Below, piece after piece: positions 9,775 through 26,322 of a stretch of 42,126 bases of DNA (its first letter is position 1; each line of letters starts with the position of its first letter). A model generated the notes under the pieces. The model was not told the origin of the DNA and ran no database searches. It saw only the letters and a program-made list of their open reading frames with translations. Origin of the DNA: a virus (Duplodnaviria > Heunggongvirae > Uroviricota > Caudoviricetes); IMG/VR virus record IMGVR_UViG_2541047766_000003, one strand, 5' to 3'. A program made the translations under genes and the position numbers.

Positions 9775-9783
9775 TGTGACATG

Positions 9784-10275: not shown

Positions 10276-12750
10276 TTATTGCGGAGTGACATCCTGAGGT
10301 CGCCACCAGTATGTCTGATTAAACTCTTTCTTCGAACGTTGCTCCATTTTGCGCAAATAGCCTGGTGAAAAATACTCCTGCATCTGGTTAAAGATCATGT
10401 GATCGAGAGCCGCCTTCAAGTACCAGAGATTCGCACCTGGCATCAAACCTTTCCCCAGTTTCACCAGATCACCTCCAGTCTGCTCACTCTTCCCTTCCAC
10501 AGCATTTAGCGGTATGCCCTGAGCAATCTTCACTACGTCATCAACCAGACCAGCTACCGGGCCAAGCATCGACGCCAGCGCGCCGCTTCCGTACCTAGTG
10601 TGATCTGACAATAAAAAGTCACCGTAAAGACCAAGACCACCACCTTTCAGTAGAGCACCAAGCCAGAATTTTGCGGCATCTTCTCCTGTCATCTCTCGAG
10701 GATTACGACCAGACGCAAGGTCGTTAAGTTGCTGCGACAAAGCGCCAAGAATGGTCGTACTGGCAATAAACGTCGCAATATATGCCGCACGACCACCAGC
10801 AGACGGCATACCCATAGCGCGTGACCAGTGACGCATAACAACCGAGATAGGGAACGATTTAAACAGGAAAACACTTCTCGTTAATTCACCTTTCCATGTT
10901 CCACGCTGAATACCAGAACCGGTTATCAGTTGCTCACGTGCTCCCGGTGTAATAACAGCCATATCAACTTCTTCAGTTACGGCACCGAGCAGTTTACGCA
11001 TTGCCTCAAATTTCACGCGTTCAGGCTCACCAAGATGTTTAACTGCTGAATCAGGGATACGCATAATGCTTTCCGGTGTCAGCATCGTATTATTACCGTT
11101 CCCCCAGTCCTCTTGTTGCGCCAGCTTCCATACGCTCCAGTCTGTGTCAGTAATCCCTTTGCTTTTCAGGATACGAAAATCAGAGTCATCGAGGCTACGA
11201 AGGTCTGGTGTCCGTGACACTACTTCTCCCAGGCTTCCCATCATAGTTACGCCATAGGCGCGCTTGTGCGCATCTGACCATGCTGTAAGCCCACTGGCAC
11301 GCATTACCGCCGTTGCCGCCCAACGAGACACAGACGGCCCCATATTATCCATCGCCCAGCGGTTAACGCTGCCAAGTAGAGATTCCATCGCCAGACCAGC
11401 GCGGCGCGCCCGCGCAAGTTCTGTACGGTTCGTTGGGTCCATAGCTTCAAGCTGGTTGCGGAATAACTGGTTCATTGGAAGGTTGGTAACCTTCGCAGAC
11501 AGATACATGGTTCCAAGGTCAGAGAACGATGACAGCAACGCGGATCCGAGTCTGCTGGCAACCAACCAGTTGCGGATATTGTCAGACCATCGCGCGATGT
11601 GCGGATTCGCTACAGGCTGTGTCTTTCCGGAAATAAAGTTGTACAGATTCTCTGTGTTGTTCGCCAGCCGCTCGACTTTACCGGTTTTACTCGGGTTAGC
11701 TGTTGCCGTTTCTGCCTTCACCTGATCAAGAAGAGAGCGGAAAACATGATCGGGGTTTGGGCCATATGTTTCCACCAGTGCAATATCTTTACTGATACCT
11801 TCAAGGTGACCGACCATGATTTCCCATAGAGAGCGATCGCCATAAAGTTGCTGATATTGCAGATAGGAATCTGCATCTTTGAAATGTATCTGTCGTGATG
11901 CATTACCACGGTTAGCACGTGCGCCGGAAATTCGCATTCCGGTATCAGTAAGCTTATTCAGCCCACCTGTAGCGATCGTGTTATAAGCCTCTCCAAGAAA
12001 TGCAGACAACTCGTCATCGTTCATCAGTTGTCCATCGGCTCGGGTATAATATTTGCGATCCAGCTTACCTATAACATCGCTAACCCATTTATCTTTTGAT
12101 ACCGCACCAACCTTTTCCATAGAATGATGTTGAGGGATCCCCCAGTTTTCGAGATAGCCAATGTCCCCACCAGCATCATTAAACCTGCGGCGGAGTAGAT
12201 CTGTCACTTCTCTCCACGCCTTAGCACCTTTTCTTGCTTTAGCATTGCCAGTATTTTGCCCTCGCATTTCATATACCAGGTCACGCACGCCAGCTTCATC
12301 TTCAAACAGGCCAAAAAAGCGAGGATCAACTGCTTCGAATGCCTCCTGCAATTGACTCAATGCATAATCACGAGTGGCTTTTGTTCTGGACTCAACAGAG
12401 AGGAAATTCGATTTACCGTCTGCATTAAAAGCAATAGTACGGTTAAGAGCGCCAAGTTTCCCATCAGCCCCTTGATAGCTATTGATAAATTTATCCAATC
12501 TCTGACGTGCAGCTATAGTGAGAGCCACACGACGTTTCTTTAATGCCGCTTCTCGCTGTAATTCTTCAGATGCCAATTGTGCTGCACGATACAGCCGCTC
12601 TGACTCGGAAAGTTGTCGCCACGACATAGGGTCATCACGAGCAATGGAGCGCATATTGCGATAAATGCGGTCTTCAATGTTCTGTATTTCTCGCGCCGTT
12701 AACGTGCGCTGCGCCGCCTTCTGGACCGCTTGTATACATTCCTGTCTCAT
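10276..12750 (-). CDS. Large virion/ejection (internal core) protein
   Basis: 824 aa, last of four consecutive large ORFs downstream of the gp11/gp12-like tail genes, as in podoviruses. Confidence 0.7.
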   Translation of the reverse strand: MRQECIQAVQKAAQRTLTAREIQNIEDRIYRNMRSIARDDPMSWRQLSESERLYRAAQLASEELQREAALKKRRVALTIAARQRLDKFINSYQGADGKLGALNRTIAFNADGKSNFLSVESRTKATRDYALSQLQEAFEAVDPRFFGLFEDEAGVRDLVYEMRGQNTGNAKARKGAKAWREVTDLLRRRFNDAGGDIGYLENWGIPQHHSMEKVGAVSKDKWVSDVIGKLDRKYYTRADGQLMNDDELSAFLGEAYNTIATGGLNKLTDTGMRISGARANRGNASRQIHFKDADSYLQYQQLYGDRSLWEIMVGHLEGISKDIALVETYGPNPDHVFRSLLDQVKAETATANPSKTGKVERLANNTENLYNFISGKTQPVANPHIARWSDNIRNWLVASRLGSALLSSFSDLGTMYLSAKVTNLPMNQLFRNQLEAMDPTNRTELARARRAGLAMESLLGSVNRWAMDNMGPSVSRWAATAVMRASGLTAWSDAHKRAYGVTMMGSLGEVVSRTPDLRSLDDSDFRILKSKGITDTDWSVWKLAQQEDWGNGNNTMLTPESIMRIPDSAVKHLGEPERVKFEAMRKLLGAVTEEVDMAVITPGAREQLITGSGIQRGTWKGELTRSVFLFKSFPISVVMRHWSRAMGMPSAGGRAAYIATFIASTTILGALSQQLNDLASGRNPREMTGEDAAKFWLGALLKGGGLGLYGDFLLSDHTRYGSGALASMLGPVAGLVDDVVKIAQGIPLNAVEGKSEQTGGDLVKLGKGLMPGANLWYLKAALDHMIFNQMQEYFSPGYLRKMEQRSKKEFNQTYWWRPQDVTPQ

Positions 12751-12755
12751 TTAAT

Positions 12756-14558
12756 TTAACCTCTCAAGAAACACGCCACAGCAACATCAAACAGGCTGGA
12801 ATCCTGTATTGCCTGCTCACTTTCCCTGTTAGCTTCATCCAGTACTTCACGCGCACTGCGCGATTGTGGATTACCATCATCATCCAGCACGGTGATTATC
12901 ATGTCAGGTGATTCAAGCAGCGAGTCTTCAGCTATACGCAGATCAATATCTCCTGCCGGATCTGCCATCATTTTTTGTTCTGTCTGTTGCAATATCTTAC
13001 CGGGCTCAAAAGGAGCTACTTCGTCTGGCGTCCTGACCTCTGCTGTTTTATAGAATGAAACAGCCTGAGCATTAAGTTCACTTTCTGCCTGCTGTCGCCG
13101 TGCCAGTTCTGCTCGAGCTTCAAAAAACTGACCTCCAGGCTCGTGCGGTGCCAACGCGTTACGGGAAAATTCCAGGCGTTCTTGTGCCTGCCGGATTCGT
13201 TGATCAATATCACGAAGTCTGGCCTGTTTATCTGATCGAGCACGAGACAAAGCTTTACCGCTACCGGTTGGCTCTTCTGCAAGAATTTGTGCACGCTGTT
13301 CAGTGAGATTTTCAATAATTCGTTGGCTATTAGCGATTTCAGACTGGTAAACCTGTCTATCTCCACGCGGCAAAAGCTGCGCGGCCTGTTCTTCAAGCAA
13401 CCGATTTTCTATAGCGCGCGCCGTTACTCCATCATCTACAGATGACAGAGCCTCATTAACTGCCTGAGACAGCAGACTCTTGCGCTCTGGAATTTCACTG
13501 AAAGATGCAGACTCAACAATGCTGGCAACGTCTACAGGTCTCCCCTGGCTAACATCAGACATAGCTTTTCGCAGAGCCTGAATGTGAGAATTGCGCGAAA
13601 GCACGTTGATCGGCACGCCGGGAGCAATATCAATTTCAGCATGATGAGCGGCATTCGCCGCCAGTGCAGCATCGACATCAACTGGTGAAAAATTTGGTGC
13701 GCTTGTAGACTCGCCGCGAGAGTTAATAAATCTGCCGACACCACCAAACGCCACCCCAAGAACAGCATCAATAGCAATTGCCTGTCGATCCAACACATCA
13801 TACTGGTTAGCCATTTCGCTATAGCCACCATCACGAAGCGTTTTTGCAGTAAGCCCACGCTGTGCCATACCGAACGCAATATTTGTACCTGCGGCATAGG
13901 CAATATCTGGCGTTGCACGTACTGCTGTTGCTGCGGCGCGTCGCACTGAACTCTCACCCGTCCGCGCGAGCTGAGCCGCCACACCTTCCGCCAGCGCACC
14001 ACCAGCACGTAACCCGAGGCTCATAGGGATCAATGTTCCGGCACCAGCAGTAATGCCCTGCACTAATCCCGCTTCCTGCGCTGTCCTGAAATCAACACCC
14101 TGTGCTGTCAGCCGTTCAAACTCAGAAAAACCCTGTAGCGAAGTTACCGCCGCTGCACCTCCGACCGGACCACCGAGCGTTGTACCGACAACAGCCTGCC
14201 CGCCCATATCGAACAACCCATAAAGAACCTGCCCTGCGGTTCCGGTTGTCGCGGCATCAGGCGTCAGCCGCTTAACCTGCTGCTCTGCTAGTTTTCTCTG
14301 CTCGGCAATGTATGAAACTGAAGTGTCATTGAGCGAGGTGTTTTCGTTAACAAACTGAGCAATCGGGGATACGATTTTATCCATCCCTGCCCATAGCAAC
14401 TGATCTGGCTTTGCCACCAGCCCGGAGTACAAACCAGACAATGCCGCTCCTACAGCATTGTCGAAAAAACCAACATCGCTGTTAAAGCCAGCTGGATTTG
14501 ATACTGCTTCGTCAAGCTGCTGATTCTGGTTTACTGGATTAAGGCCAAAGTAACTCAT
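12756..14558 (-). CDS. Virion/ejection protein
   Basis: 600 aa, Ala/Gly-rich N-terminal part, coiled-coil C-terminal part; operon position. Confidence 0.7.
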   Translation of the reverse strand: MSYFGLNPVNQNQQLDEAVSNPAGFNSDVGFFDNAVGAALSGLYSGLVAKPDQLLWAGMDKIVSPIAQFVNENTSLNDTSVSYIAEQRKLAEQQVKRLTPDAATTGTAGQVLYGLFDMGGQAVVGTTLGGPVGGAAAVTSLQGFSEFERLTAQGVDFRTAQEAGLVQGITAGAGTLIPMSLGLRAGGALAEGVAAQLARTGESSVRRAAATAVRATPDIAYAAGTNIAFGMAQRGLTAKTLRDGGYSEMANQYDVLDRQAIAIDAVLGVAFGGVGRFINSRGESTSAPNFSPVDVDAALAANAAHHAEIDIAPGVPINVLSRNSHIQALRKAMSDVSQGRPVDVASIVESASFSEIPERKSLLSQAVNEALSSVDDGVTARAIENRLLEEQAAQLLPRGDRQVYQSEIANSQRIIENLTEQRAQILAEEPTGSGKALSRARSDKQARLRDIDQRIRQAQERLEFSRNALAPHEPGGQFFEARAELARRQQAESELNAQAVSFYKTAEVRTPDEVAPFEPGKILQQTEQKMMADPAGDIDLRIAEDSLLESPDMIITVLDDDGNPQSRSAREVLDEANRESEQAIQDSSLFDVAVACFLRG

Positions 14559-17068
14559 TGCGGAATATCTCCGGAGAATCTCTGACGCTTCTGTGTCAGA
14601 TCAAGAACAACAGGAGAACCATCATCTTTCAGCAGATAACCAGTACCAAGTTTCACCAGATACTGACTATCGCCGTAACTTTGCAAACCATACTGACCAG
14701 GCGGTGTTTTTATCCCAGTGCCGACAACTTGTTCATTCCAAGCCTGATTAACCTGCTTATCGAATTGCTCTGCAGACATTCCCCACGGCAAAAGGACATT
14801 CCCCATTCCGTTATAGTCATGCACGCCACCTGTAGCTACGTTAACAGCCTGTTTCCAGGTATCAGTGTCAATTTCACCTGATATCACGCCTTTTTTCGCC
14901 ATCACACCAGCGTAATAGTCCTTTGCGATCTCGTATGCCATTGATGCCCCCTGAGCATCACCAGCAAATGCATCCTTCACCATGTCAGAAAACTCAAGGC
15001 GAAGATCAGCATCTTTAGGCATCGGAATACCTTTCGCATCATCAGTACCTTTACGAGCCGCCGCGCCAGCAAGAATTGTCTGCGCAGCGGTTTCAGGAGA
15101 CACGGAAACATCCGGATTAAACCAGTTTTTTTCTGCCAAAATACCACCAGGCTTGTCCATCAGTATCCCGGCAACGGCAGCAGATGGAGCGTTGGCACTG
15201 ATCTGCTGTAGTGCTGACATATACACCTGCCCACCACCAGTGCTCTGCCTGATGGTATCGAGATATGCTGCCTGTTGGGAAACTGGAGCATCACGAAAGA
15301 AAACACCGATCTGATTGGCCTCGTCTTTGGAAAAGAACGTCAGTGGAGTGCCATATGACTTAGCAAGGTCACTGACCTGAGCGGCACGCAAGGCAACGCT
15401 CTGTCCAAAGTTATCCTTATTGCTCATGTCGATAGGCTTTGTCTGTCCGGAGGCAAGAGAGAACTGCACAGGATCCGACTGCCGCTGCTTTATCACCTGA
15501 TTTGCAGCCGAAACAACGTTGTCATAAAGAGCTGCGCGTGCCGCATACCCCTCCCCTGTTTCACCAGTATCCGGGCGCAATTTCTCAACATATGCGGTAA
15601 TGCTGCTTGTCGGCATGTTGCGGAAAGAGCCTATATACTGTCCGGCGATCTGCGTATTTCTGAACTCGGTATATCGCAGGTTTCCTTCTCTGACGCCATA
15701 AGCTGCAATAAAATCATCCTCACCTGGTGGGTTAGGAAATTCAACGCCACGCATATACGCAGCCGTCGCATCGCGAACCCGGCTGTCGAGCATCGTTTTA
15801 TATTCAGCCTGCTGTTGTCTGGCTAGTGCATCAGTCTGTCGCAACACGCTGGCCTGATCTGATTCACTTAAAGCATCGAACCAGGCTACACCGGTATAAC
15901 GTTTATTTTTTGTCGGTAGCTGAGAAAGCCCCAGAGCAGCACTAACACCTGCAGTTAACTGCTGATCACTGTATGGCTGGCTACCGTTTTCATGATGGAT
16001 AATGGCTGCACAAAGCGCCTTCAGGGTATCAGGATTTGATGCATCGAGAGGCTCATCAGCAGAAACGCCAAGTTGTTCGCACACTGCTTTGATATACGAC
16101 ATAGTGTCATTTTTATCAGTAGGCGGTGCCCAGCGATTAATTATCTCGCTGACGGTATCAATACCCTGCCGCTGATACGACATCAGGTTCCGCCCTAATG
16201 CACGAATACCGTGTTCAGGGGTTTCGAATTTGGCAAAGCGACCATCATCACCAGTCTGCCCAACCCACGGATTAGTTTTGCTGTATTCAAGATTGCCGGG
16301 GTTATTGTTGCGTATACCGCGGGTACGATCGGAAGAGCCACTATCTGCTACAGCACGGCGAGATCCAGCAGCAGTATCGCTTAACTCGCCGTTTTGCTGT
16401 CTTACCTGAAGATAGTTTGCTCCAATAGCATTTTGAGCAGTTGCTTTTGCTGTTGCTTCTTTAAACTCGATTTTCTTGGCCTGGATTTGCTCGTCACTCC
16501 AGCCATGTGCAATGCCGTAATCCTCAATTTGCTGGAAAGTTTGCTTATTAGCCAATACGTATGCGACGTTGTCGCCATACAATGCTGCGGCATTTTTACC
16601 ATTGTTCAGCAGCGTAGCCTGAAACTGGCCTTCTTCGTAGGCATTTATTTGCCCTATCTCGTGCCGCCCTGCCTGCGTAGTGAACTGAATGCGCTGCTGC
16701 TGCGCCTGCTGCATGAAAGCATTACGAGCCTGTTCATCCGGCAGCGACATAGCCAGTTGTTCGACCTGAGCATCAAACTGCTGCGTATACTCCTGACCTT
16801 TTCCAATAGCATTTTTCCCTTTCAGGTTAAGCAATCCTGTTTCAGGATTATTCAGCAGATCACTGCTTATCTGACTGAGGTTAAGAGATGCCTCCTGAGC
16901 CAGAGCGATATTGGCACGCTGTTTTGCCTGACCAAAAACATCAATTGCCTCTGTCCCTGCCCGAACAAAAGCATCACCAATACCTGGCTGAGAAAACGTC
17001 TGCAAGCCTGCTGACTGAACTCCACGGCTCTGAACCTGACGGCCGGATACTGTTGGTACGACTGGCAT
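14555..17068 (-). CDS. Virion/ejection protein with GIRNNNPGN motif
   Basis: Start set at ATG overlapping upstream stop (TAATG) with RBS ggagg; the track ORF extends to 17143. Confidence 0.7.
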   Translation of the reverse strand: MPVVPTVSGRQVQSRGVQSAGLQTFSQPGIGDAFVRAGTEAIDVFGQAKQRANIALAQEASLNLSQISSDLLNNPETGLLNLKGKNAIGKGQEYTQQFDAQVEQLAMSLPDEQARNAFMQQAQQQRIQFTTQAGRHEIGQINAYEEGQFQATLLNNGKNAAALYGDNVAYVLANKQTFQQIEDYGIAHGWSDEQIQAKKIEFKEATAKATAQNAIGANYLQVRQQNGELSDTAAGSRRAVADSGSSDRTRGIRNNNPGNLEYSKTNPWVGQTGDDGRFAKFETPEHGIRALGRNLMSYQRQGIDTVSEIINRWAPPTDKNDTMSYIKAVCEQLGVSADEPLDASNPDTLKALCAAIIHHENGSQPYSDQQLTAGVSAALGLSQLPTKNKRYTGVAWFDALSESDQASVLRQTDALARQQQAEYKTMLDSRVRDATAAYMRGVEFPNPPGEDDFIAAYGVREGNLRYTEFRNTQIAGQYIGSFRNMPTSSITAYVEKLRPDTGETGEGYAARAALYDNVVSAANQVIKQRQSDPVQFSLASGQTKPIDMSNKDNFGQSVALRAAQVSDLAKSYGTPLTFFSKDEANQIGVFFRDAPVSQQAAYLDTIRQSTGGGQVYMSALQQISANAPSAAVAGILMDKPGGILAEKNWFNPDVSVSPETAAQTILAGAAARKGTDDAKGIPMPKDADLRLEFSDMVKDAFAGDAQGASMAYEIAKDYYAGVMAKKGVISGEIDTDTWKQAVNVATGGVHDYNGMGNVLLPWGMSAEQFDKQVNQAWNEQVVGTGIKTPPGQYGLQSYGDSQYLVKLGTGYLLKDDGSPVVLDLTQKRQRFSGDIPQ

Positions 17069-17613
17069 TATAATCCTCCGGGTAATCTGGTTCCTGCTGC
17101 TGCCCCGATTGGCGCAGGGGTGCTTTGAGTAAACGGACTCCACGTCCCACCAAACATCTGGTACGCACCGTATGCCTTCAGAGGCGCAGTGAGCAATGTT
17201 GTTGCTGCTCCCACATTCCCCTGTTTACGGGCTGAACTGGCTTCTGCTTTATAGTTGGCAGCCTGAACCTGATAACCGTAAGCCTCGCGTTGCGCGTTAT
17301 TCACCGTCGTCAGCGAATCAAGAGCGCCAAACTGAGCAGTGTCACCAAATATATCCAGCGCGTTACCTGTAGATAAATCGGCGCCGGTCGCCCCCATTGT
17401 CGCCGCCTGTGTACCAAGCCGCTGTCGGGTCTCTCTGCGCCGTTGCTCAGCTTCAGCGTTACCCCTGTTTATTGCATCATTTGCCTGAGCTGTGGCTATA
17501 TCTGCGTTCGCTTCTGCAACCTTCGAGGCATACCTTACCTGTTGGTACTGGGTGTATGCCTGAATGCCACTCATGGCGAGCATTGCGCCACCAGCAATAA
17601 CCGGATCGCACAT
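17068..17613 (-). CDS. Internal virion protein (gp14-like position)
   Basis: 181 aa, Ala/Gln-rich, in the tail/core operon. Confidence 0.6.
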   Translation of the reverse strand: MCDPVIAGGAMLAMSGIQAYTQYQQVRYASKVAEANADIATAQANDAINRGNAEAEQRRRETRQRLGTQAATMGATGADLSTGNALDIFGDTAQFGALDSLTTVNNAQREAYGYQVQAANYKAEASSARKQGNVGAATTLLTAPLKAYGAYQMFGGTWSPFTQSTPAPIGAAAGTRLPGGL

Positions 17614-18077: not shown

Positions 18078-20548
18078 CAGAATCCCCCAACAGTAAGGCG
18101 AGGAATAACGGCAAGAACAGACAGCGGCAACGGGTCAAGCTGACGGATTTTTACACGCCCGTTTTTGCCCCAGTTACTGTCCAGTTTCACTTCTACTTTT
18201 CCGGTAGCATCATCAACAGGATCATCGTAGAACTCGAATTCACGCTGTGGATATTCGTACCATTTACCGCCGGGCGTAGTCGCCCAGATGCCGCGACTGG
18301 CATTCACAACCAGAGTAACGGACGGGATCACCTGTTTTTTGTCCAGCAGCGTTTCCTGTCCGTTAATGTTGATATCCAGTGTTTCGAATTCAGCAGTTAT
18401 TGGCAGGCCGATGTGCACAACAGCCCCCGGTGATTCCAGCGTGACGGCACCTCCGGAAACCACTTTTTGTGGTTCCACGTTCGCATCAGAGAGGATGTTT
18501 ACGGTCTGGCCTTCAAGATGAGACAAGCCGCCAAATGTCCGGCGCGCCATCTGCCAGTTCGTGGTGGCCACATTCCTGAGGGATGGCGGGACGTTCCTGT
18601 TAGCACGAACCACTACTGCGGTATTGCTGGTTACAGAAATAATGTCGCAACGTAATTCTTTTGACAATTCATCGCCAGTATCAGGATCAGCTCCGGTATA
18701 AGGGAACTGTAGTTGCGCACCAACATCACTACTGGTGAAGTACGCACCACCAGAAACACTGATTGTATATTCCGCGTGGTAATCCCATTCACCAGAACCA
18801 CCAGTGATGGTCATCGTTCTGTCAGACGTATTTCTTCCATCATAGCTAAGGCCAGAATCAACAAAGAAAGCATCTTCATCGCTGGTAAATAAACGGCTGG
18901 ACAGTCGCTCTATGTATCTCACTGTTTGCCCGTTAACGGTTCGGTTAACGACGAAATACACCGCATCTTCATTGCCTTCGCTGATACTGCATGTGCTTTC
19001 ATATTTCCCGGTACTGGATTGTGGTGCCCATGCAAAAACCTGCTGATCACGCAAATAGGTCATCACCAGTAATTTACCGTCATCACGAATGCAGAAGGCG
19101 CTGGAGTAAGGGACAATAGAGAAGCACCAGTCAACAATGCTGTGCTTCTGAAAAAGATGATTGGCAAGGATAGTAAGGTCGTTCCCCTGATAGCCGTCAA
19201 CATCGAATGAGTAGGCCAGATCACGGACAACACTGCCTTTCTCCTGGACGAACAGAGCAATATTCGCCACGGCAATTGGTGGGACATTGCTCGAGCCATT
19301 TGATCCCTGAGAGCTGAATGCAAATGATGATGGGGTTAATACTTTGTTCTGGTCGCCGGTGATGACGTACTCACCTCCGGAAGTCAGCGCCACCAGCGAA
19401 CCAACATCAATCAGGTGGCGGATCTCATTAACCTGACGCCCGGCATAGGTGTAGATAATTCTGTCGTCATCCTGCGTAGGATTGCTTTTGCCAAAATCCT
19501 TATAATCCCCAGTACGGCTGGCCCAGATAGTCTGAGGGAACGCAGTCGATGCGGCGAAGTAAAGACGTTGTTGATAATAAACAACAGTGCCAGGATAACC
19601 GTTAATACTGTTCCAGGCATATTTAGCCCATTTGTAGCTGGCATTATCCTCGCCAACAACCTGCGAAGGGATATAGGAAATCACCTCGGCAGTTGCAGTA
19701 GTTCCATTTGCAGCAGAGATACGGGCAATGCCAAAACCACTGTGCAGATACTCCCACTCAATGCCGGTATCATCATCACCGGATCCGCCCCAGCCATCCC
19801 ATGATGTGCCTTCTGTATGCGAAGGGCGCAAAGTGCCTGTTTTGCCTGCTGTAACGGCGCGATAGTAGTTACTGTCTGCACGGCGAATATCGCCAATCGA
19901 CGTACTCTTACTGGTTTCCCATACCGGCACAGAATCCACTGCAGGCTGTTCCAGATAGAACAATTTGCCTACCTGCTCCGCGCCAAAAATAGAGGCGCTT
20001 GCCGTTAACGTAATTGTCCCGGTGCTGGCGCTGGCATAAACCGTCACTGACTCGTCAATATTGATATCTTCAAATGGCCCGTTCTTCGTTACCACATCAA
20101 CCAGTTGCCAGTTGTCATGCGCATAGCGGCGCAACTCTTTCGGCGGGTATGCCGGATGAACCAGCGTAAGCACGTCTGCGCTTTGCGTGAATTTAATTCG
20201 GAACAGATCGGCTTCAGTATATGGCGTGGCAATTTCATAAATAACATTGCTGCTGTTCAGCACCAACGCACCATCTTTGATAACGCGCATGTACTGGTGT
20301 CCGAACTCCAGAGCATAGGTCTGAACAGTCGAGAACTGGAACGGGATCAGGCGGCATTTCCGATTTGGGTATTTGGCGGCACCGACAAAACGCGTACCCG
20401 GTCGATTCTCAACGCCGCCATACTGCCGCACGATAAAGTTATCGCACTTGCGCAAAGCCACCTGGTACTTCGCCATGTCGATACGACCGTACAACGACGG
20501 TCCAATCTCACCACCGGCAAAGCTGGGCTGGATCCAACTGATAGCCAT
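18077..20548 (-). CDS. Tail tubular protein B-like (nozzle)
   Basis: 823 aa; N-terminus MAISWIQPSFAGGEIGPSLYGRID resembles gp12-type N-termini; follows the gp11-like gene. Confidence 0.7.
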   Translation of the reverse strand: MAISWIQPSFAGGEIGPSLYGRIDMAKYQVALRKCDNFIVRQYGGVENRPGTRFVGAAKYPNRKCRLIPFQFSTVQTYALEFGHQYMRVIKDGALVLNSSNVIYEIATPYTEADLFRIKFTQSADVLTLVHPAYPPKELRRYAHDNWQLVDVVTKNGPFEDINIDESVTVYASASTGTITLTASASIFGAEQVGKLFYLEQPAVDSVPVWETSKSTSIGDIRRADSNYYRAVTAGKTGTLRPSHTEGTSWDGWGGSGDDDTGIEWEYLHSGFGIARISAANGTTATAEVISYIPSQVVGEDNASYKWAKYAWNSINGYPGTVVYYQQRLYFAASTAFPQTIWASRTGDYKDFGKSNPTQDDDRIIYTYAGRQVNEIRHLIDVGSLVALTSGGEYVITGDQNKVLTPSSFAFSSQGSNGSSNVPPIAVANIALFVQEKGSVVRDLAYSFDVDGYQGNDLTILANHLFQKHSIVDWCFSIVPYSSAFCIRDDGKLLVMTYLRDQQVFAWAPQSSTGKYESTCSISEGNEDAVYFVVNRTVNGQTVRYIERLSSRLFTSDEDAFFVDSGLSYDGRNTSDRTMTITGGSGEWDYHAEYTISVSGGAYFTSSDVGAQLQFPYTGADPDTGDELSKELRCDIISVTSNTAVVVRANRNVPPSLRNVATTNWQMARRTFGGLSHLEGQTVNILSDANVEPQKVVSGGAVTLESPGAVVHIGLPITAEFETLDININGQETLLDKKQVIPSVTLVVNASRGIWATTPGGKWYEYPQREFEFYDDPVDDATGKVEVKLDSNWGKNGRVKIRQLDPLPLSVLAVIPRLTVGGF

Positions 20549-21153
20549 CAGGACAACCTCGCAATGGTAAACTCGTCAACCGGTGGCTGTGGTTCCTGTG
20601 ATTCATTCTGGCTATGCGAGCCAGCACTAAGAATCACGCGATTGTACATATTGAGGGCAAACGTACCGAGGTCTGCATTCCCAGTCAGCGCCATGTTAAT
20701 AGCTGCCGCAAGACGCCAGGCCAACGCCTCCATAAAAATGGCATCAAACATGTTCACATCTGAAACGCGAGAGACATACTTGAGCCATGCCTGCGGCTGG
20801 TCTGTGTAGATCAACTTTCCTGTTCCGTCGGTGTCTGCACCAACTTCGTACTGAACGCGCATTGCTGCTGTTGGATTGCGTACACCAGGAAGCATAATTT
20901 CAGTAATGCGCAGACAATCGGACGGGTACTGGTACGCATATTCCCAGTCAGGCGGTGGATTGCTCGTATCTGCAAGCGCCACGCGTTTGGTAGCAAAGTT
21001 CCAGTCAAAATCAGAAAGCACAGCATCACGGCAGGCCTCAAAGTGCAGCGAACATTCCCCCGCTTCCTTGCTGGCTTCCGTCAGGCTGTTAATGCTGCGG
21101 CTGTTGCCAATATTGGACAGCGCACGATTACAGATCTCTACTACAGAGGCCAT
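20548..21153 (-). CDS. Tail tubular protein A-like (adaptor/gatekeeper)
   Basis: 201 aa; N-terminal VVEICNRALSNIG and C-terminal FMEALAWRLAAAI resemble T7 gp11 as recalled. Confidence 0.65.
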   Translation of the reverse strand: MASVVEICNRALSNIGNSRSINSLTEASKEAGECSLHFEACRDAVLSDFDWNFATKRVALADTSNPPPDWEYAYQYPSDCLRITEIMLPGVRNPTAAMRVQYEVGADTDGTGKLIYTDQPQAWLKYVSRVSDVNMFDAIFMEALAWRLAAAINMALTGNADLGTFALNMYNRVILSAGSHSQNESQEPQPPVDEFTIARLS

Positions 21154-21482
21154 TACTCACCCCCATTGCCGTACAGAGTTTCAGCCGCTGATTTTTCTAC
21201 ATCCCCGGAAACAGGAGCGATCGCCATATCAGTGATCTGCAGATCGGCGCTGCGATTAACACCATCGTCAGTTTCTCTGGCAGACAGGCCTCGAATAACA
21301 GCCTTTGCAGTTATCATCACTTCTGTTCCGACGCCCTGAGGTTGCGCCTTCAGCTTATTCAATGTGTCGTTATTAAGAGTGATGCACAGCCCCCACGGGT
21401 ATTCATCGCGAGTTCTGGTTTCTCCGCTCTCATCCTGGTAGCTGTCAGTGCCGGTTTTGAGGTTTACGAGTTCCATATACAC
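21153..21482 (-). CDS. Hypothetical head/neck protein
   Basis: ORF in the structural operon. Confidence 0.55.
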   Translation of the reverse strand: MYMELVNLKTGTDSYQDESGETRTRDEYPWGLCITLNNDTLNKLKAQPQGVGTEVMITAKAVIRGLSARETDDGVNRSADLQITDMAIAPVSGDVEKSAAETLYGNGGE

Positions 21483-21526
21483 TCCTGCAATAAAGGGGCC
21501 GAAGCCCCTTGTCGGATTCGCGAGGC

Positions 21527-21871
21527 TTACACGCCCAGTTCTTTACGCTTATCTGCGATCTTCTCGCGGAGCGTTTCGGCTTTAGCGTTATGGTGTGGCT
21601 TCTCGTTAAAGAGCAATTCGTACTCTTCACGGAGCTTATCCAGTTCACCATCATCTGACACATCGTTGATGATTTTGGTGCTGGTTGCTGCCATAGACAC
21701 CTTTCCTGCTACCTTTGCTTTTGCCTGTCTGGCTGCATCGTTAACAGGTTCCAGTGCGCTACCAGGCTCACCTTCGTATTCGATTTCTGCCCCCTCCGGC
21801 CACAGTGTGTTATGGATATGAGAGAGGCGCAGAACGCGGTATCTTGGTTTCTCACCTGACATCGATATCAC
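21527..21871 (-). CDS. Hypothetical structural-operon protein
   Basis: ORF in the structural operon; start may be an internal Met. Confidence 0.5.
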   Translation of the reverse strand: MISMSGEKPRYRVLRLSHIHNTLWPEGAEIEYEGEPGSALEPVNDAARQAKAKVAGKVSMAATSTKIINDVSDDGELDKLREEYELLFNEKPHHNAKAETLREKIADKRKELGV

Positions 21872-21872
21872 C

Positions 21873-22310
21873 TTAACCAGTTACTTTTGAGCGGATCGGG
21901 TACGGTGTATTGGCATCAACATCCAGACTGATACCCGCAGTGAATTTGCCGGCCGTTAGTGGGCCAGTTGCGACGGAGTAGTTAACACGCAGATATCGCT
22001 GAACACCGGCAGGCACCTTTGCAGAAACAACTCGTTTACCTGCTGTCAGGGTAGCCTTTGCCAGTGCGCCACTATCATAAATAGTGGACCATGAGCTGTT
22101 ATTCTCACTCGTCTGCAACTGGATGTTTACAGTTGCCTCACCACTTGCCGTGGCGGCTTCGTTAACCAGCACCCAAAACTCAAGCGGATAACCCACGCCG
22201 ATATCGCGACGGTTTCCATCAATTGGACCGAGATCGATTACGTCAGTAGAAGCCGCGGTATTCGTAACCGCCTGAGCTTCGGAGAACATCAACAGTTTGT
22301 CGGTGATCAT
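21873..22310 (-). CDS. Putative capsid decoration/cement protein
   Basis: 145 aa, beta-rich, immediately downstream of the major capsid gene. Confidence 0.55.
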   Translation of the reverse strand: MITDKLLMFSEAQAVTNTAASTDVIDLGPIDGNRRDIGVGYPLEFWVLVNEAATASGEATVNIQLQTSENNSSWSTIYDSGALAKATLTAGKRVVSAKVPAGVQRYLRVNYSVATGPLTAGKFTAGISLDVDANTPYPIRSKVTG

Positions 22311-22361
22311 CTTCTTTCTCCATTAGTGGGTCTGTTACGACCCACAGGTTAATAACAGGCG

Positions 22362-23354
22362 TTACACCACGCGGGCTTCTGTTTCCAGAAGCGCATCAGT
22401 TTCACGGATTGGTACACCACGGAATGAAGTCCACCACTCGCCTTCTGTCTCTTTTACGCTGATCGCCAGAGATGTTTTCTCCAGAGATTGCAGATCAAGA
22501 GCCTGGCCTACAGTGCGGTTCATGTAGAACACCGGGCGGCCCATGCCACGGTTTGGAATGCGATGCAGTGCTTTAACCATCAACTTCGCAATATTTGCGG
22601 CAGAGGAAGGTTCTGAAAGATTGCTGACATCGATGTTTGCAATGCGAACAACATAACGCCAGTCACGCAGAGCAAGTCCGTTGTCCCATTTGTAATGGGT
22701 GCGATAGCCTTCGTACTTGCCGCCATTAGCATCTTCCAGTGTCACCTGGCCTTTATCTTCCATCTGGATGCCAGCCTTCTGCCCTTTCGGGAAGATGCCA
22801 TGCACGGTGTTTTCGCCCCACACCACTAACCAGATTGAGGTGTTATCTGTACCCGTGCCACCAGCATCAATGATGTTCTGAGCATTACCCGCAGACAGGC
22901 TGGAATAGCGGGAGGACAGTCCCATAAACTGCTGAGGGTTAACGCTGGAATCACCATAAAACAGCGTCTGCGCCATCTGCTGATTCATCGCTTCAATAAA
23001 TGCGCGGTCTTCAGACAGGCGGAATTCAGCGGTATTGCCGTTCAGATCAGCCAGTGACTTATCGACTTCAGCATAGGTTTCCAGCATGCCAACGGAATCG
23101 GTTACCTGCACTGTGGTTGATTTGCTTGGCTGTACGCCATAGTTCAGCAAACGCCAGGTAGCTGAAGGTAAACCAGAACGAATGGTGGTTCGGTGTCCGG
23201 TAGGAAGGTTCCCTTCGACAAAAGGCATATCCTGAAGGATCGGGTTAGTTTGACCGAGAAGCTCGATAATCTTATCGACTTTCCCGTTTGGATCGACGCG
23301 CTTACCCCAGTCAGCCAGCGTTAGCGCAGTTAAGCCTTTAACAGCCATTGTCAT
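22362..23354 (-). CDS. Major capsid protein
   Basis: 330 aa following the scaffold gene; size matches epsilon15/BPP-1-type capsid proteins as recalled. Confidence 0.75.
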   Translation of the reverse strand: MTMAVKGLTALTLADWGKRVDPNGKVDKIIELLGQTNPILQDMPFVEGNLPTGHRTTIRSGLPSATWRLLNYGVQPSKSTTVQVTDSVGMLETYAEVDKSLADLNGNTAEFRLSEDRAFIEAMNQQMAQTLFYGDSSVNPQQFMGLSSRYSSLSAGNAQNIIDAGGTGTDNTSIWLVVWGENTVHGIFPKGQKAGIQMEDKGQVTLEDANGGKYEGYRTHYKWDNGLALRDWRYVVRIANIDVSNLSEPSSAANIAKLMVKALHRIPNRGMGRPVFYMNRTVGQALDLQSLEKTSLAISVKETEGEWWTSFRGVPIRETDALLETEARVV

Positions 23355-23362
23355 TTCCTCTC

Positions 23363-24064
23363 TTATTTGCCATAGAGCACTTCGGCCGCACTACGCTGGC
23401 CTTCATTACCACCGGTGACCATGCCATCTTCAGACATCGCCTTTCCGATTTTCACGAACGTTTTGACCAGATCAGGGTGATTACCCAGCCCGGTGGTGTT
23501 CAGATATTCTTTGAGTTCAGGTGTCCCGAACTGGTCAAGCGCACGCTGTGCGGCGCTAAGGTTATAAATCAACTTGTCGCCACCGATTTCTTTGTCAGCT
23601 TTTACATCCGCAGCCCACTGCTCGGTTGTTTTCTGCCAGGCTTCTGCCTGGCGCTGCTGAACACCTGCCAGAATCTTCGGATAAGCATCAACCAGCTTTT
23701 GCGCTTGCTCGTTGGTCAGGTTAAGTTCTCGCGCCACCGGCTCGAATTCCTTCAACGCTTCTGTATCCAGCTCTACGCCTTCGGCAGCCTGAAACTCGTA
23801 CTTCTCAGGCGCACCCTCTGGTTTATCGCCGTCCTTTTTTTCATCCTGCTTATCGTTTTCAGGCTTTTTGTCATCAGCAGGTTTATCGCCATCAGCAACA
23901 GGTTGTGGCTTATCACCTTCCTGTTGTGATGGATCACCAACTGGAGCAGGGTTATCACCTGCAGGCGCTGACGGTTCTGACGCAGCCGGAGCTGCTCCAC
24001 CATCGACTGGTTGCTCATTGCAAAGACGGCGATACAGCAAACGCTCAAATAAATTCATGATCAC
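23363..24064 (-). CDS. Scaffolding protein
   Basis: Acidic, Pro/Asp/Lys-rich low-complexity N-terminal half and helical C-terminal half, between portal and capsid genes. Confidence 0.7.
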   Translation of the reverse strand: MIMNLFERLLYRRLCNEQPVDGGAAPAASEPSAPAGDNPAPVGDPSQQEGDKPQPVADGDKPADDKKPENDKQDEKKDGDKPEGAPEKYEFQAAEGVELDTEALKEFEPVARELNLTNEQAQKLVDAYPKILAGVQQRQAEAWQKTTEQWAADVKADKEIGGDKLIYNLSAAQRALDQFGTPELKEYLNTTGLGNHPDLVKTFVKIGKAMSEDGMVTGGNEGQRSAAEVLYGK

Positions 24065-24357
24065 TCCTGTTCACTGGCCTCTTTGGCCATCTTCAAATAC
24101 TGTTCAGGGCAATGCGCCATAACGCGCTGAAACAGTTCCAGCGCCAGATTGCGTTGCCCCTCATTAAATGCCATTGCCATAGCGTCCATCGGTGAGATAG
24201 CGGAAAACACACGGCCTTTCTCCAGCACCGACCAGACAACGCGACGCCCATGTTCACTGCTCATGACAAAGCGAATGTCATCAATTTCACGCTGTGCCAT
24301 GTCACGTTGCTTACTGGCGCTTTCTTCTTTCAGTTGATCGTCTTCGTAATCTGTCAT
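24061..24357 (-). CDS. Small acidic protein between portal and scaffold
   Basis: 98-aa ORF overlapping neighbours by 4 nt. Confidence 0.5.
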   Translation of the reverse strand: MTDYEDDQLKEESASKQRDMAQREIDDIRFVMSSEHGRRVVWSVLEKGRVFSAISPMDAMAMAFNEGQRNLALELFQRVMAHCPEQYLKMAKEASEQE

Positions 24358-26033
24358 TGTGATTGCCCACCCTGACCACTAACTGCATTCGCCATAGCTG
24401 ACAAAACACTCGGATCCGAAGTTTTAGCTTCGCTTAGCGTTTTGGCACCCTGTGCCGCCGCCATCCCCATCGCCATCATTTGTTGCTGCTGTTGCTGCTG
24501 TGCCCGTTGCTGGCGAGCCTGCTCAACCTGTTCCTGCGGAACAATGACGGTTGGAGACACTCCGGACATATCAGCGAATGCATCGATCGCCTGATCAACG
24601 TTGAGTTTGTCGAGAGCTTCTGGTTTCGCTTGCGCAAGTTGACCAATGAAGTTGACCGTAGACGCCAGACTGGACAAGCCGATAGACTTCTGCGCCTGAG
24701 CCATGACGGAAATGTATTCGACCTTCAGGGGCATACCTTCCATCGCGTCAGGCGGTGGCGGCAGCATGTTTTTACGCACCATCATCGAGAAAGCGCGGTC
24801 AATGAGAGGATTAAGACATTCGTCGTTCAGACGCTCCAGAACCGGCCCCAACATCAGAAGTTTTTCTTCTTTCATTTCGATCACCGCTTCAACAGGCATC
24901 GAGCGGGTATTGATGTTCTGCAACATCATGAACAGATCGACAAAGTAGGCGCTGTTAATGATTTGACGAGTGTCCTGAATGTCTGCTACCAGATCTGCTG
25001 TACTGGGGTTAACCAGATAAGCAGGCCTGAAACCATCCTGACCAGTAATCTGATCGATATACGTGATGTCGCCAGGAAGAAGGGAGGCGCGCTGATTCTT
25101 GAGGGAAGTCGGAGCAACCATCGGCGGATTGGTGGCTTTATCAATCAACTGCGACTTGCGCTTCTGGAGAAGTTGCAATGCCTTAACAGGTCCAAGCGCC
25201 AGCATACCCGGGCATGATGATCCATAAACATCTTCGCCGTTAACTTCCCAGCGCGGAGCCATAATTGGAAACTCATCGAATCCGGACTCACGCAACAACT
25301 TGTCGTTATCGCCACCAACCTCGTAATAAACCGATTTGAATGGCTTGTTCTTGCTATCCAGCTTCGATGTATCGCGGTCAATGTTCGGGTAAACCGAATG
25401 CATCACTTCAATCCACTTCTCGTAGGTGCCGCTTTCCCACATGCTTTTTACGGATTCGCTGACGTTATTTAGCCCGAACTCCTGAACAAGCTGACGAACA
25501 GTCATAGAGAACTTGCGGAAACAGGTGTCCACACTGCCACGAGGTGAGTTAGCCAGGTAGTAACTGCCTATAGGGAATGGCATTGTGCGAATGATGTCCT
25601 CGTCATCCTCCAGCACCGCCATTGCACCAGTGCTGTATGTGCCGAGGCTTCCGTATAACTGCGGCAGCGACTGATAGAGATTCGACTTATTGAACATATC
25701 GTTCATGCGGTTCTGCACCGCCTCAAGCCACAACTTAACAGGGCCATAATCCATCATTTCAGGATCTGGCGTAGCCAGGCGAAACCACGGACGCGCGGGG
25801 CTTGTGATGCCTGACATCATGCCGCTGGCGAGAGTGCGCGCCGCCATAGTCCCGGTCGAATCAATAATGCGTGTATTGCGTCGATCGTTACGGTTGACCT
25901 CAGAAGTCAGAAAGCGGGAACCACGCGGGTTGATGTAATCACTCAACTCGCGCCAGTGCGGCTCGAACGACTGACGCTCGCTTTCAAGTTGTGCGAACTG
26001 TTTGTTCAATCGCTCTTTAGTTGTTTCCGCCAT
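24354..26033 (-). CDS. Portal protein, T7 gp8-like head-to-tail connector
   Basis: 559 aa; C-terminal QQRAQQQQQQQMMAMGMAAAQGA tail and central TNPPMVAPTSLKNQRASLLPGD resemble T7 gp8 as recalled. Confidence 0.85.
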   Translation of the reverse strand: MAETTKERLNKQFAQLESERQSFEPHWRELSDYINPRGSRFLTSEVNRNDRRNTRIIDSTGTMAARTLASGMMSGITSPARPWFRLATPDPEMMDYGPVKLWLEAVQNRMNDMFNKSNLYQSLPQLYGSLGTYSTGAMAVLEDDEDIIRTMPFPIGSYYLANSPRGSVDTCFRKFSMTVRQLVQEFGLNNVSESVKSMWESGTYEKWIEVMHSVYPNIDRDTSKLDSKNKPFKSVYYEVGGDNDKLLRESGFDEFPIMAPRWEVNGEDVYGSSCPGMLALGPVKALQLLQKRKSQLIDKATNPPMVAPTSLKNQRASLLPGDITYIDQITGQDGFRPAYLVNPSTADLVADIQDTRQIINSAYFVDLFMMLQNINTRSMPVEAVIEMKEEKLLMLGPVLERLNDECLNPLIDRAFSMMVRKNMLPPPPDAMEGMPLKVEYISVMAQAQKSIGLSSLASTVNFIGQLAQAKPEALDKLNVDQAIDAFADMSGVSPTVIVPQEQVEQARQQRAQQQQQQQMMAMGMAAAQGAKTLSEAKTSDPSVLSAMANAVSGQGGQSQ

Positions 26034-26047
26034 TTCAATGACTCCGG

Positions 26048-26254: not shown

Positions 26255-26322
26255 ATCAATGACTCCGTACGCAATTAAATTATTACCAATTTAACCACAT
26301 ATGATTTATTTATCGTAGGCAG

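Follow-up and report, generated by a model that had tools for sequence, protein, structure and literature searches.

The architecture of Uetakevirus, the genus of temperate podoviruses related to phiV10 and epsilon15, has been established since these two phages were sequenced. Prophages of the phiV10 type are common in E. coli, and phiV10 serves as a reporter phage for the detection of O157:H7. Here we analyse the control of late genes in a prophage of this group, carried by the IMG/VR record IMGVR_UViG_2541047766_000003 (42,126 nucleotides (nt), hereafter the window). A literature search gave no account of late-gene regulation in Uetakevirus among the searchable papers, a set outside which the primary epsilon15 and SPC32H papers lie. 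Related regulators have been described. SPC32H Rep, an epsilon15-group homologue of the repressor found in the window, is a helix-turn-helix (HTH) protein of two domains. It is reported to bind as a tetramer to palindromic sites, and a small antirepressor inactivates it (PMC9638917). In P1, according to a review (PMC10695390), eleven late promoters depend on the activator Lpa and consist of a -10 element and a 9-bp inverted repeat bound by Lpa.

The window consists of a segment of the E. coli chromosome and a Uetakevirus prophage that spans from about 1.9 kb to the right window end. Positions 10276-26033 are 100% covered, at 97.5-98.4% nucleotide identity, by HEMP4, ZX5, phiv142-3 and phiV10 (97.5% for phiV10), whereas identity is 81% to Enterobacter phage Tyrion and about 75% to the epsilon15-group Salmonella phages. 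The early half of the prophage is about 97% identical over 57-84% coverage to phages of the HEMP4/ZX5/phiv142-3/phiV10 type, with the usual mosaic gaps (for positions 26034-42126 against phiV10 and phiv142-3, 96.9-97.7% over 57-78%). The gene order, terS-terL-portal...internal proteins-tailspike-lysis-int-early left-rep-cro-replication, is that of the phiV10, phiv142-3, epsilon15, Tyrion and 65FD records. Nucleotide identity, gene order and the presence of a T7-gp8-type portal together with an epsilon15 GP7-type capsid protein all place the prophage in Uetakevirus. An initial annotation of positions 10276-26033 had described a podovirus structural module combined with a lambda-style early region and had suggested a comparison with epsilon15/phiV10-type genomes. 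That comparison reveals the same gene order and 97-98% identity to phiV10 over the virion operon; the prophage is no unusual chimera but a standard member of the genus, 97-98% identical to phiV10, HEMP4 and ZX5, and both the phage and its mosaic architecture are already known.

The last gene of the window encodes a tyrosine integrase (40876-42126, minus strand), and guaA lies beyond the window end. Several complete E. coli chromosomes match the left 3.2 kb of the window at 100% identity; there, a near-identical prophage follows and then guaA-guaB. The position of guaA beside int in these prophages agrees with the integration reported for the relative ZX5 at the 3′ end of guaA (PMC9782041). The likeness to phiV10 and epsilon15 thus covers gene order throughout, integration by guaA, and the placement of operators, terminators, late boxes and palindromes. 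In contrast to these phages, the prophage has a different tailspike, lacks the O-acetyltransferase gene (a 98-amino-acid (aa) open reading frame (ORF) stands before the lysis genes instead), adds an isrK/C4-Bro-N module and a 242-aa membrane protein, and keeps an intact 77-aa ORF just before terS. RecE and RecT are separate here, whereas phiV10 has an annotated fusion.

The explanation that accounts best for the whole, and which we hold with moderate confidence, is that of a Uetakevirus prophage by guaA with no detectable Q or N, whose separate late units are silenced by the repressor Rep and depend on an activator that reads a DNA element which we call the late box. In the lysogen, Rep would bind TTACC-N5-GGTAA, of which about 15 copies stand at, or next to, almost all transcription units, and most late operons would be off. 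Derepression would be brought about by antirepressors, one encoded behind a LexA box and one behind the C4/isrK RNAs. Transcription of terS-terL would then start from an extended -10, TGnTACTAT, which begins 5 nt after the terminator tA and is covered by two Rep operators. The late promoters that lack a -35 would be switched on, after derepression, by a phage factor that reads the late box, the best candidate being a PerC-family protein.

Rep operators and the late box

The operator TTACC-N5-GGTAA, with up to one mismatch, occurs 14 times in the window against 0.83 expected, a number reached in 0 of 100 shuffles. All copies are intergenic, and they occupy syntenic places in phiV10, phiv142-3, epsilon15, Tyrion, 65FD, Kp4865-1 and BUCT554. 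Furthermore, the GenBank record of epsilon15 labels seven of these sites 'repressor / lysogeny' (protein_bind). The sites and the promoter-like sequences that go with them are the following:

Positions 36325-36339, 36356-36370 and 36373-36387: OR, three Rep operators on the cro side of rep
Positions 36314-36342: PR-like promoter, TTGTTA-17-TATTAT, overlapping OR
Positions 37085-37099 and 37147-37161: OL, two Rep operators that flank the PL-like promoter
Positions 37119-37147: PL-like promoter, TTGACA-17-AATTAT
Positions 33980-33994 and 34042-34056: pair of Rep operators between the P-like and DUF1064 genes
Positions 35988-36002: Rep operator just downstream of the cro terminator
Positions 6579-6593: Rep operator between the tailspike and small antirepressor genes, syntenic with epsilon15 19895-19911, annotated 'repressor'
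Positions 7698-7712, 7791-7805 and 8843-8857: Rep operators of the Bro-N module
Positions 26345-26359: Rep operator overlapping a promoter-like TTGACA-17-TACCTT
Positions 26323-26359 including that operator, plus strand: the promoter-like TTGACA-17-TACCTT, directed toward tRNA-Arg and a Gp49-family gene, also found in the syntenic epsilon15 region
Positions 29505-29519 (exact) and 29487-29501 (one mismatch): Rep operators before terS; the syntenic epsilon15 12-27 is annotated 'repressor'

Rep itself is only 42% identical between phiV10-type phages, including this one, and epsilon15-type phages, and Cro 76-84%; the operator consensus is common to both types. The scattering of many intergenic sites recalls the stoperators of mycobacteriophage L5, at which one repressor silences a whole prophage. 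Unlike the sites described here, which are palindromic and mostly overlap or flank promoters, stoperators are asymmetric and orientation-dependent and act on elongation.

The dispersed operators that the initial annotation had suspected of a part in late control are thus real, and such a part is plausible. The same holds for the repeat that it had noted upstream of terS, with a correction as to its nature: Tandem Repeats Finder reported no tandem repeat there, and the element is made of two 15-bp operator palindromes 18 bp apart, the second of which (29487-29501) overlaps the Shine-Dalgarno sequence of terS.

The late genes form four units (terS-terL, virion, tailspike and lysis), each with its own promoter-like region. 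The elements in front of them, and a further copy of the late box, are as follows:

Positions 29539-29559, minus strand: intrinsic terminator tA, which separates terS from the early-right operon and is also marked in the epsilon15 and phiV10 records
Positions 29519-29527, minus strand: candidate terS promoter with extended -10 TGTTACTAT, by consensus reading
Positions 26279-26306, minus strand: late box and -10-like hexamer of the virion operon, AATCATATGTGGTT-N7-TAATAA, with TGG before the hexamer
Positions 6523-6552, minus strand: late box and -10-like hexamer of the tailspike gene, ATCCATATGTGGTT-N7-TAATAG, an exact 13-mer match
Positions 3834-3861, minus strand: late box and -10-like hexamer of the lysis genes, AACCATAAATGGTT-N7-CGTAAT
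Positions 35969-35982: late-box-like palindrome AACCACATTTGGTT, 5 nt from the Rep operator at 35988-36002 and conserved in five genomes, followed by GATC and a T run

In front of terS the order is tA, then TG-N-TACTAT 5 nt after the T tract, the two Rep operators and the ATG, with no -35. Extended -10 promoters work without a -35. The terminator is conserved in all relatives examined, and TGnTACTAT is kept in phiV10, epsilon15, Tyrion, 65FD and nearly all of the 38 junction variants found among 80 IMG/VR relatives; these relatives came from a portal-based search that returned only 100%-identical matches, so that they inform on junction variants and not on diversity. We infer a Rep-controlled terS promoter at this extended -10. 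More generally, most late operons are probably silenced directly by Rep via scattered operators, in the manner of P1 and not of lambda, and this reading is most secure at terS.

The three other units share the late box, CATAT-N2-GGTT, which is the core of a palindrome AACCA-N4-TGGTT and stands exactly 7 bp before a -10-like hexamer, again with no -35. The hexamers are TAATAA for the virion operon, TAATAG for the tailspike and TATAAT, TATGAT or CGTAAT for the lysis genes, and the start codons follow about 20-55 nt after the -10. The window has four copies of CATA[AT]NNGGTT where 0.56 are expected, and at each of the three late units one such copy stands in the correct orientation 7 bp before a TAnnnN hexamer. 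The palindrome, with up to one mismatch, occurs nine times against 1.4 expected. Late boxes are kept at the same places in relatives of 75-80% identity: that of the virion operon is identical or nearly so in seven Uetakevirus genomes, and that of the lysis genes is kept in phiV10, epsilon15, Tyrion and 65FD. Exact CATA[AT]NNGGTT is found in neither lambda nor N15, and ZF40 has one copy, inside a gene. Rep operators lie 26-38 bp upstream of the late boxes at the virion and tailspike units and, in relatives, also at the lysis unit. The box fits none of the consensus sequences of IHF, DnaA, CRP, FNR and LexA sites. It suggests a phage activator of the virion, tailspike and lysis units, as read from its fixed place before the hexamers.

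Two other elements resemble the box. One is a copy of its palindrome at 7750-7763, between two operators upstream of the ant promoter, where a weak terminator-like hairpin was flagged. The other is an inverted repeat, GAATCA-N5-TGATTC, at about 36400-36417 in the rep leader, between the third OR operator and the rep start codon, whose half-sites resemble those of the late box with a spacing one base longer.

This layout has more in common with P1 than with lambda. Like P1, whose C1 operators are distributed as single and paired sites, the prophage has many operators over its genome. A -10-like hexamer with an upstream inverted repeat and no -35, a layout that resembles the P1 late promoters, is seen at three late units, although the sequence and spacing of the repeat differ from those of P1 LPhot and LPpac and its centre lies near -26 and not -22. 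A C4-family antisense RNA precedes an antirepressor gene, as in the P1 c4 RNA-ant immI region, and a regulator gene stands directly before PacA/PacB-like terminase genes, as lpa does before pacA-pacB. In contrast to P1, which is a plasmid, this phage integrates, and it has no Lpa homologue. The HTH_3-domain Rep looks like a different kind of repressor from P1 C1. The likeness to lambda resides in the position of the late genes downstream of the early-right operon, with a small regulator gene last and an intrinsic terminator before the first late gene. However, no protein of the Q family (lambda, 82 or 21 type) was detected, tA lies upstream and not downstream of the candidate terS promoter, and the lambda layout of a single late promoter followed by a terminator is not seen: the four late units have promoter-like regions of their own, and most of them have Rep operators beside them.

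Several observations weigh against a late control made of Rep and a box-reading activator. Operators overlap a putative core promoter at terS only; at the virion and tailspike units the operator is upstream of it by about 67-80 bp, and the lysis cassette of phiV10 shows the same arrangement. The operator at 26345 clearly serves the divergent TTGACA-17-TACCTT promoter, and the lysis box of this window has no operator within 130 bp. An alternative pairing at the lysis unit, GTAACA-17-TATTAT, places the box in the spacer. Copies of the box also stand without a -10 downstream of the cro terminator and in the control region of ant; a T tract follows them, and they may act as a small RNA hairpin. 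Antitermination would also fit the presence of the strong terminator tA immediately in front of terS and of the RHH-Zn gene (see below) at the position that Q occupies in lambda. Finally, all promoter calls are consensus readings, and binding partners and timing are likewise inferred.

Candidate regulators and the ribbon-helix-helix protein

No early ORF matches the Q or N families in Pfam, PHROGs or NCBIfam, and the phiV10, epsilon15, Tyrion and 65FD records annotate no antiterminator. P1 Lpa also has no homologue here: the best tblastn match in the window has an E value of 5.2. As far as sequence-family searches extend, the absence of a recognised Q-family regulator, stated in the initial annotation, is thus borne out, and no canonical antiterminator or late activator was identified. 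The records of relatives name a PerC-family activator and, directly upstream of terS, a 'transcriptional regulator', neither of which is a canonical late regulator. The early proteins conserved across the genus are Rep, the Cro-like protein, a 66-aa protein with a Zn motif, the 50-aa and 104-aa proteins of the PL operon, an AlpA-type protein, a 38-aa membrane peptide, the PerC-like protein, a methylase and RHH-Zn, the protein with a ribbon-helix-helix (RHH) and a zinc ribbon encoded before terS.

The PerC-like protein (39739-40038, plus strand) matches PF06069 with 30.1 bits against a cut-off of 22.6 (E 6e-7) and phrog_868, 'transcriptional activator', with an E value of 5.7e-62. It is conserved in all relatives (64-99%). 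Homologues of this version are found in only 36 phage records, all of Escherichia, Salmonella, Klebsiella or Enterobacter, and those listed are of the epsilon15/phiV10 type. This phage distribution matches that of the late box and is the sole argument for PerC as its reader, a candidate that we regard as the best one and as weak. Against it, the PerC family has no demonstrated DNA-binding mode, and the single-sequence structure model was unusable (pLDDT 48).

Other candidates were set aside. RHH-Zn is not expected to read the late box: ZF40 encodes a 67% identical homologue and has no intergenic late box, and N15 has no late box. The AlpA-type protein is of the 82-aa excisionase type, unlike the Pseudomonas AlpA, a Q-like antiterminator with a larger 21Q-like fold (PMC9371919). 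The homologues of the 66-aa Zn-motif protein encoded after cro are widespread in lytic phages, and some of them are annotated as endonuclease VII or HNH.

The RHH-Zn gene and the DNA elements around it are the following:

Positions 29792-30133, minus strand: RHH-Zn protein, with an RHH and a C-terminal four-Cys zinc ribbon, phrog_536; family of phiV10 gp55, epsilon15 gp49 and N15 gp46
Positions 29562-29795, minus strand: 77-aa ORF (phrog_1541), a variable insert that separates the RHH-Zn gene from terS
Positions 29784-29795: palindrome GTGACATGTCAC, site A, which shares bases with the TGA that ends the RHH-Zn gene
Positions 27333-27344: palindrome GTGACATGTCAC, site B, 4 nt from a bidirectional terminator hairpin (tB, 27349-27368) between terL and the Gp49-family gene
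Positions 9776-9787: palindrome GTGACATGTCAC, site C, immediately upstream of the hairpin of tC, at 0-2 nt
Positions 9758-9775, minus strand: intrinsic terminator tC, AGGCCGCTTTCGCGGCCT then a T tract, at the end of the virion operon; the top-ranked terminator-like site, conserved in relatives

RHH-Zn is the product of the last conserved early-right gene, after which only the variable 77-aa ORF is found in this window. That ORF is present in about a third of the IMG/VR relatives, and phiV10 has only a 3′ remnant of it. The slot appears to be a hot spot for small inserts, and BUCT554 (L097, 7860-8260) has a different gene there, behind a LexA box of its own. RHH-Zn has no sequence match in Pfam, NCBIfam or PDB, and phrog_536 is labelled 'transcriptional regulator'. 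The family comprises more than 600 close homologues, in 151 clusters at 50% identity, and all of the 120 that were listed are unnamed, 'hypothetical' or 'phage protein'. Its alignment reveals a basic helix at the N-terminus, then a strand-helix-helix core and, at the C-terminus, CxxC...C...C, and the protein has the beta-alpha-alpha fold of the RHH class. No significant match in sequence or fold links it to the DksA/TraR zinc-finger binders of RNA polymerase, and its alignment with P1 Lpa by hhalign gives an E value of 0.4.

The palindrome GTGACATGTCAC is perfect over 12 bp and has exactly three copies in the window, each where an operon ends and near a terminator. The same three sites are found in seven Uetakevirus genomes, with sites B and C 0-5 nt from terminator hairpins whose stems differ in sequence. 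In a shuffled window, three copies of some 5+N+5 palindrome can occur by chance, and the case for GTGACATGTCAC therefore rests on the 12/12 identity, the synteny and the recurrence in unrelated phages, not on the count alone. N15, ZF40 and Vibrio phage K303 each carry GTGAC-N2-GTCAC three times: in N15 one of the copies overlaps the stop of gene 46, a family member, in ZF40 one follows the gp22 stop by 2 nt, and in K303 one precedes the terS ATG by 31 nt. A Yersinia P2-like phage has a single copy and one near-copy. Among six partial metagenomic loci with homologues only 31-46% identical, four carry it one to three times, one copy overlapping a stop codon and another lying 23 nt before terS. 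Every complete family-carrying phage genome examined has one to four copies, and lambda has none. The arms are invariant and the two central bases vary, which is the pattern that a symmetric protein dimer on double-stranded DNA would leave, and not that of an RNA hairpin. From this co-occurrence we consider it likely that the RHH-Zn family binds GTGAC-N2-GTCAC. The 12-mer GTGACATGTCAC is in no paper of the searchable full-text literature, and both the late box and the pairing of this protein family with its palindrome appear undescribed. Use of the palindrome as a promoter -35 was also considered and rejected: GTGACA-17-TAAATT fits in epsilon15, Tyrion and 65FD and not in phiV10 or this window.

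The half-sites of the palindrome are those of E. coli matS, a 13-bp GTGAC[AG]N[TC]GTCAC (PMC3603311, PMC3116907). The phage site is 12 bp long and its N2 centre is one base shorter than the RNY of matS. RHH-Zn has a zinc ribbon where MatP has a four-helix bundle and a coiled coil, and the two proteins share no significant sequence similarity (hhalign E 0.11 over 24 columns, BLASTP E 13).

The foremost alternative to a box-reading activator is that RHH-Zn is a functional analogue of Q, which would bind GTGACATGTCAC by tA, tB and tC, so that read-through joins the early-right, terminase and virion genes in one late transcript. Its gene is always the last conserved one of the early-right operon, directly before terS, in the slot that lpa has before pacA/pacB in P1, and a conserved strong terminator separates the two. 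The three syntenic sites, the differing hairpins next to B and C, and the co-occurrence of the family with GTGAC-N2-GTCAC in N15, ZF40, K303, the Yersinia phage and the metagenomic loci all speak for it, as does the position of the RHH-Zn gene one or two genes upstream of holin or terminase genes in several Q-less phages. However, N15 and ZF40 have a Q-like gene besides their family member, a P2-like phage has a small, maybe Ogr-like, regulator besides its own, and in a Mu-like phage the family occupies the region where Mu carries gemA-mor (gemA called, mor inferred). This coexistence implies that RHH-Zn is not the late switch in those phages. Furthermore, the distance between site A and tA varies from 24 to about 400 bp, a poor fit to a geometry-dependent action, RHH proteins are mostly repressors, and terS has its own conserved extended -10 downstream of tA. 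We thus judge this alternative unlikely. A related proposal for Q-less phages, which we find similarly doubtful, is that the phrog_536 protein acts from its DNA site on RNA polymerase at the adjoining terminator, as a terminator-specific antiterminator or insulator. The position of the gene before terS, the terminator tA behind it and the pairing of B and C with terminators fit, speculatively, a DNA-tethered antiterminator or a terminator helper or insulator. If true, this would be an as yet undescribed kind of late-gene switch.

It is also improbable, in our estimate, that no dedicated late regulator exists. Ordinary sigma-70 promoters, several of them with an extended -10, would then be held by Rep alone and fire together once derepressed, lateness would come from promoter strength, gene dosage and operon length, and the box would be a repressor or host-factor site or a structural element. 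This is consistent with operators that flank almost every unit, with the TGn extended -10 of the terS and virion promoters, which would be workable without a -35, and with the failure to find a recognised family of activators or antiterminators. In contrast, the tailspike and lysis hexamers have no TG extension, and the fixed distance of 7 bp between box and -10 in three late units across diverged genomes resembles that of an activator site. Positive control of late expression is, moreover, the rule in all well-studied phages, according to a review (PMC10695390).

A true Q- or N-like antiterminator too diverged to be detected, such as the 50-aa or 104-aa PL proteins or the ASCH-like protein, is very unlikely. 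In its favour, Q families are very diverse and some, for example the Pseudomonas AlpA, were recognised by structure only (PMC9371919), the first PL genes, conserved in all relatives, stand where lambda has N, and there are terminators after cro, P and the RHH-Zn gene. Against it, the three proteins have no arginine-rich motif or family match, and no promoter-terminator cassette of the pR'-tR' type precedes the virion, tailspike and lysis units, with their start codons so close to the -10.

Probable induction circuit and remaining genes

Control by Rep and a box-reading activator requires that Rep be removed, and the genes that would do so lie between the tailspike and virion genes. They are listed here with the early region, which extends over 29.8-40.9 kb.

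Positions 36443-37027, plus strand: Rep repressor, with two HTH regions, PF01381
Positions 30123-36288, minus strand: early-right operon, encoding the Cro-like, 66-aa Zn-motif, DnaT/O-like, P-like, DUF1064, Ead/Ea22, DUF551 and ASCH-like proteins
Positions 36058-36288, minus strand: Cro-like gene
Positions 36017-36036: cro terminator of the early-right operon
Positions 34876-35691, minus strand: DnaT/O-like (HTH_36) initiator
Positions 34094-34894, minus strand: lambda-P-like loader
Positions 37181-40872, plus strand: early-left operon, which begins with the 50-aa and 104-aa proteins and also encodes an MT-A70 methyltransferase and DUF1382
Positions 37632-38453, plus strand: PDDEXK exonuclease
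Positions 38450-39331, plus strand: RecT
Positions 39381-39629, plus strand: AlpA-type excisionase/regulator
Positions 39739-40038, plus strand: PerC-family protein, described above
Positions 6652-6927, plus strand: candidate small antirepressor, 91 aa, phrog_450, with a C-terminus that matches the anti-repressor phrog_1760
Positions 6633-6648: LexA box CTGTATAAATATACAG, in the spacer of a promoter-like TTGATA-17-TATTGC before the 91-aa gene
Positions 7698-8857, plus strand: second antirepressor module, with Rep operators, isrK, C4 RNA and Bro-N
Positions 7807-7835, plus strand: promoter-like TTTACA-17-CATAGT of the Bro-N module
Positions 7842-7917, plus strand: isrK (Rfam)
Positions 7942-8027, plus strand: C4 antisense RNA (Rfam)
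Positions 8075-8770, plus strand: Bro-N protein, candidate antirepressor, PF02498

A domain search detected no LexA-type cleavage or peptidase domain in Rep, and the record of epsilon15 notes that its Rep homologue is similar to the SPC32H repressor 5d50. The 91-aa protein is 83-97% identical in all relatives and is called a putative anti-repressor in the 65FD record. The LexA box before it, a perfect CTGT-N8-ACAG and a further likeness to SPC32H, is kept in all five aligned genomes. The isrK and C4 RNAs score 76.7 and 77.7 bits in Rfam, above the gathering scores. To judge from the phiV10 annotation, their region is absent from that phage; together with Bro-N it would form a second immunity module analogous to immI of P1. 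Induction thus probably proceeds via antirepressors, the small one behind the LexA box and the Bro-N one behind the isrK/C4 antisense RNAs.

A cI/cro-like switch and O/P-like and RecE/RecT-like genes, as reported in the initial annotation, are indeed present, all of them outside positions 10276-26033. Its description of the immunity as lambda-style is, however, misleading: no LexA-like cleavage domain was detected in Rep, operators lie over every transcription unit, and candidate antirepressors are encoded. The scattered operators, the C4/isrK-Bro-N module and the P1 PacB-like terminase noted in the phiV10 record make the control logic look more like that of P1 than that of lambda. Within the DnaT/O-like gene, three overlapping tandem-repeat arrays with units of 12, 24 and 18 bp (35255-35394) encode an NG-rich linker and probably mark a replication origin with iterons, as in lambda O.

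The virion, terminase, lysis and neighbouring genes are the following:

Positions 10276-26254, minus strand: virion structural operon, whose first gene encodes 68 aa and whose last encodes the 824-aa internal protein
Positions 26048-26254, minus strand: 68-aa first gene of the virion operon
Positions 24354-26033, minus strand: portal, PF12236 head-tail connector of the T7-gp8 type, E 1.6e-187
Positions 23363-24064, minus strand: protease
Positions 22362-23354, minus strand: capsid protein, PF20911 epsilon15 GP7, E 2.1e-149
Positions 20548-21153, minus strand: tail protein, which also matches a 'tail tubular protein' PHROG
Positions 18077-20548, minus strand: 823-aa tail protein, tail tubular-B-like
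Positions 17613-18077 and 17068-17613, minus strand: two small internal virion proteins
Positions 14555-17143, minus strand: large head/internal protein, in part transglycosylase-like
Positions 12756-14558, minus strand: large head/internal protein
Positions 10276-12750, minus strand: large head/internal protein, 824 aa
Positions 27419-28894, minus strand: terminase large subunit (terL), by synteny with phiV10, whose record notes similarity to P1 PacB
Positions 28891-29484/29487, minus strand: terminase small subunit (terS), PF03592
Positions 1977-2474, minus strand: DUF2514/Rz-like gene of the lysis cassette, a cassette (1977-3798) syntenic with phiV10 p27-p30
Positions 2471-3100, minus strand: GH19 endolysin, PF00182
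Positions 3090-3398, minus strand: holin, by synteny and the PGAP names in a near-identical prophage
Positions 3385-3798, minus strand: membrane protein, putative holin
Positions 4285-6474, minus strand: tailspike gene, syntenic in position and N-terminus with the tail fibre genes of phiV10 and phiv142-3
Positions 26682-26758, plus strand: tRNA-Arg(TCT), by ARAGORN and Rfam RF00005 (70.9 bits)
Positions 26957-27328, plus strand: gene of the N4 Gp49 / Sf6 gene 66 family, convergent with terL, PF13876, E 1.8e-34
Positions 1-1071: E. coli genes yfgH and yfgI
Positions 1219-1677, minus strand: tnpA of IS200C, between yfgI and the lysis end of the prophage
Positions 1687-1810: STnc490 Hfq-binding RNA of IS200C

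ORF positions, Pfam and PHROGs agree with the earlier description of a T7 gp8-like portal and gp11/gp12-like tail proteins, and no tape-measure or tube protein was found among the ORFs of the virion module. The four large core/ejection proteins of that description are in fact three large internal proteins and the 823-aa tail tubular-B-like protein. One of the two small internal proteins is named 'virion core protein, T7 gp14 family' by PGAP in a sister prophage.

Some features bear on none of these subjects. The 242-aa protein (6949-7677) has a membrane helix at its N-terminus and repeated CxxC...CxxC; phiV10, epsilon15, Tyrion and 65FD encode no equivalent of it, and it is probably a moron. 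ARAGORN, Rfam and PGAP all place the tRNA-Arg(TCT) on the plus strand. In the phiv142-3 record (23999-24067) the gene has the reverse orientation and is shorter by 8 nt, which is probably a mistake of annotation there. A CTGT-N8-ACAG box of the LexA type lies at 26874-26889, between this tRNA and the Gp49 / Sf6-gene-66 family gene. The IS200C copy sits at or adjoining the right attachment site.

For the biology of Uetakevirus, the regulatory map suggests a form of late control that works without a detectable Q, with one repressor, about 15 scattered operators and -35-less promoters that share a box. The pairing of a widely distributed family of small DNA-binding proteins with a specific 12-bp site is a modest lead. 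A map of early and late units would also help to place payload genes in reporter or therapeutic phages derived from phiV10 and epsilon15.

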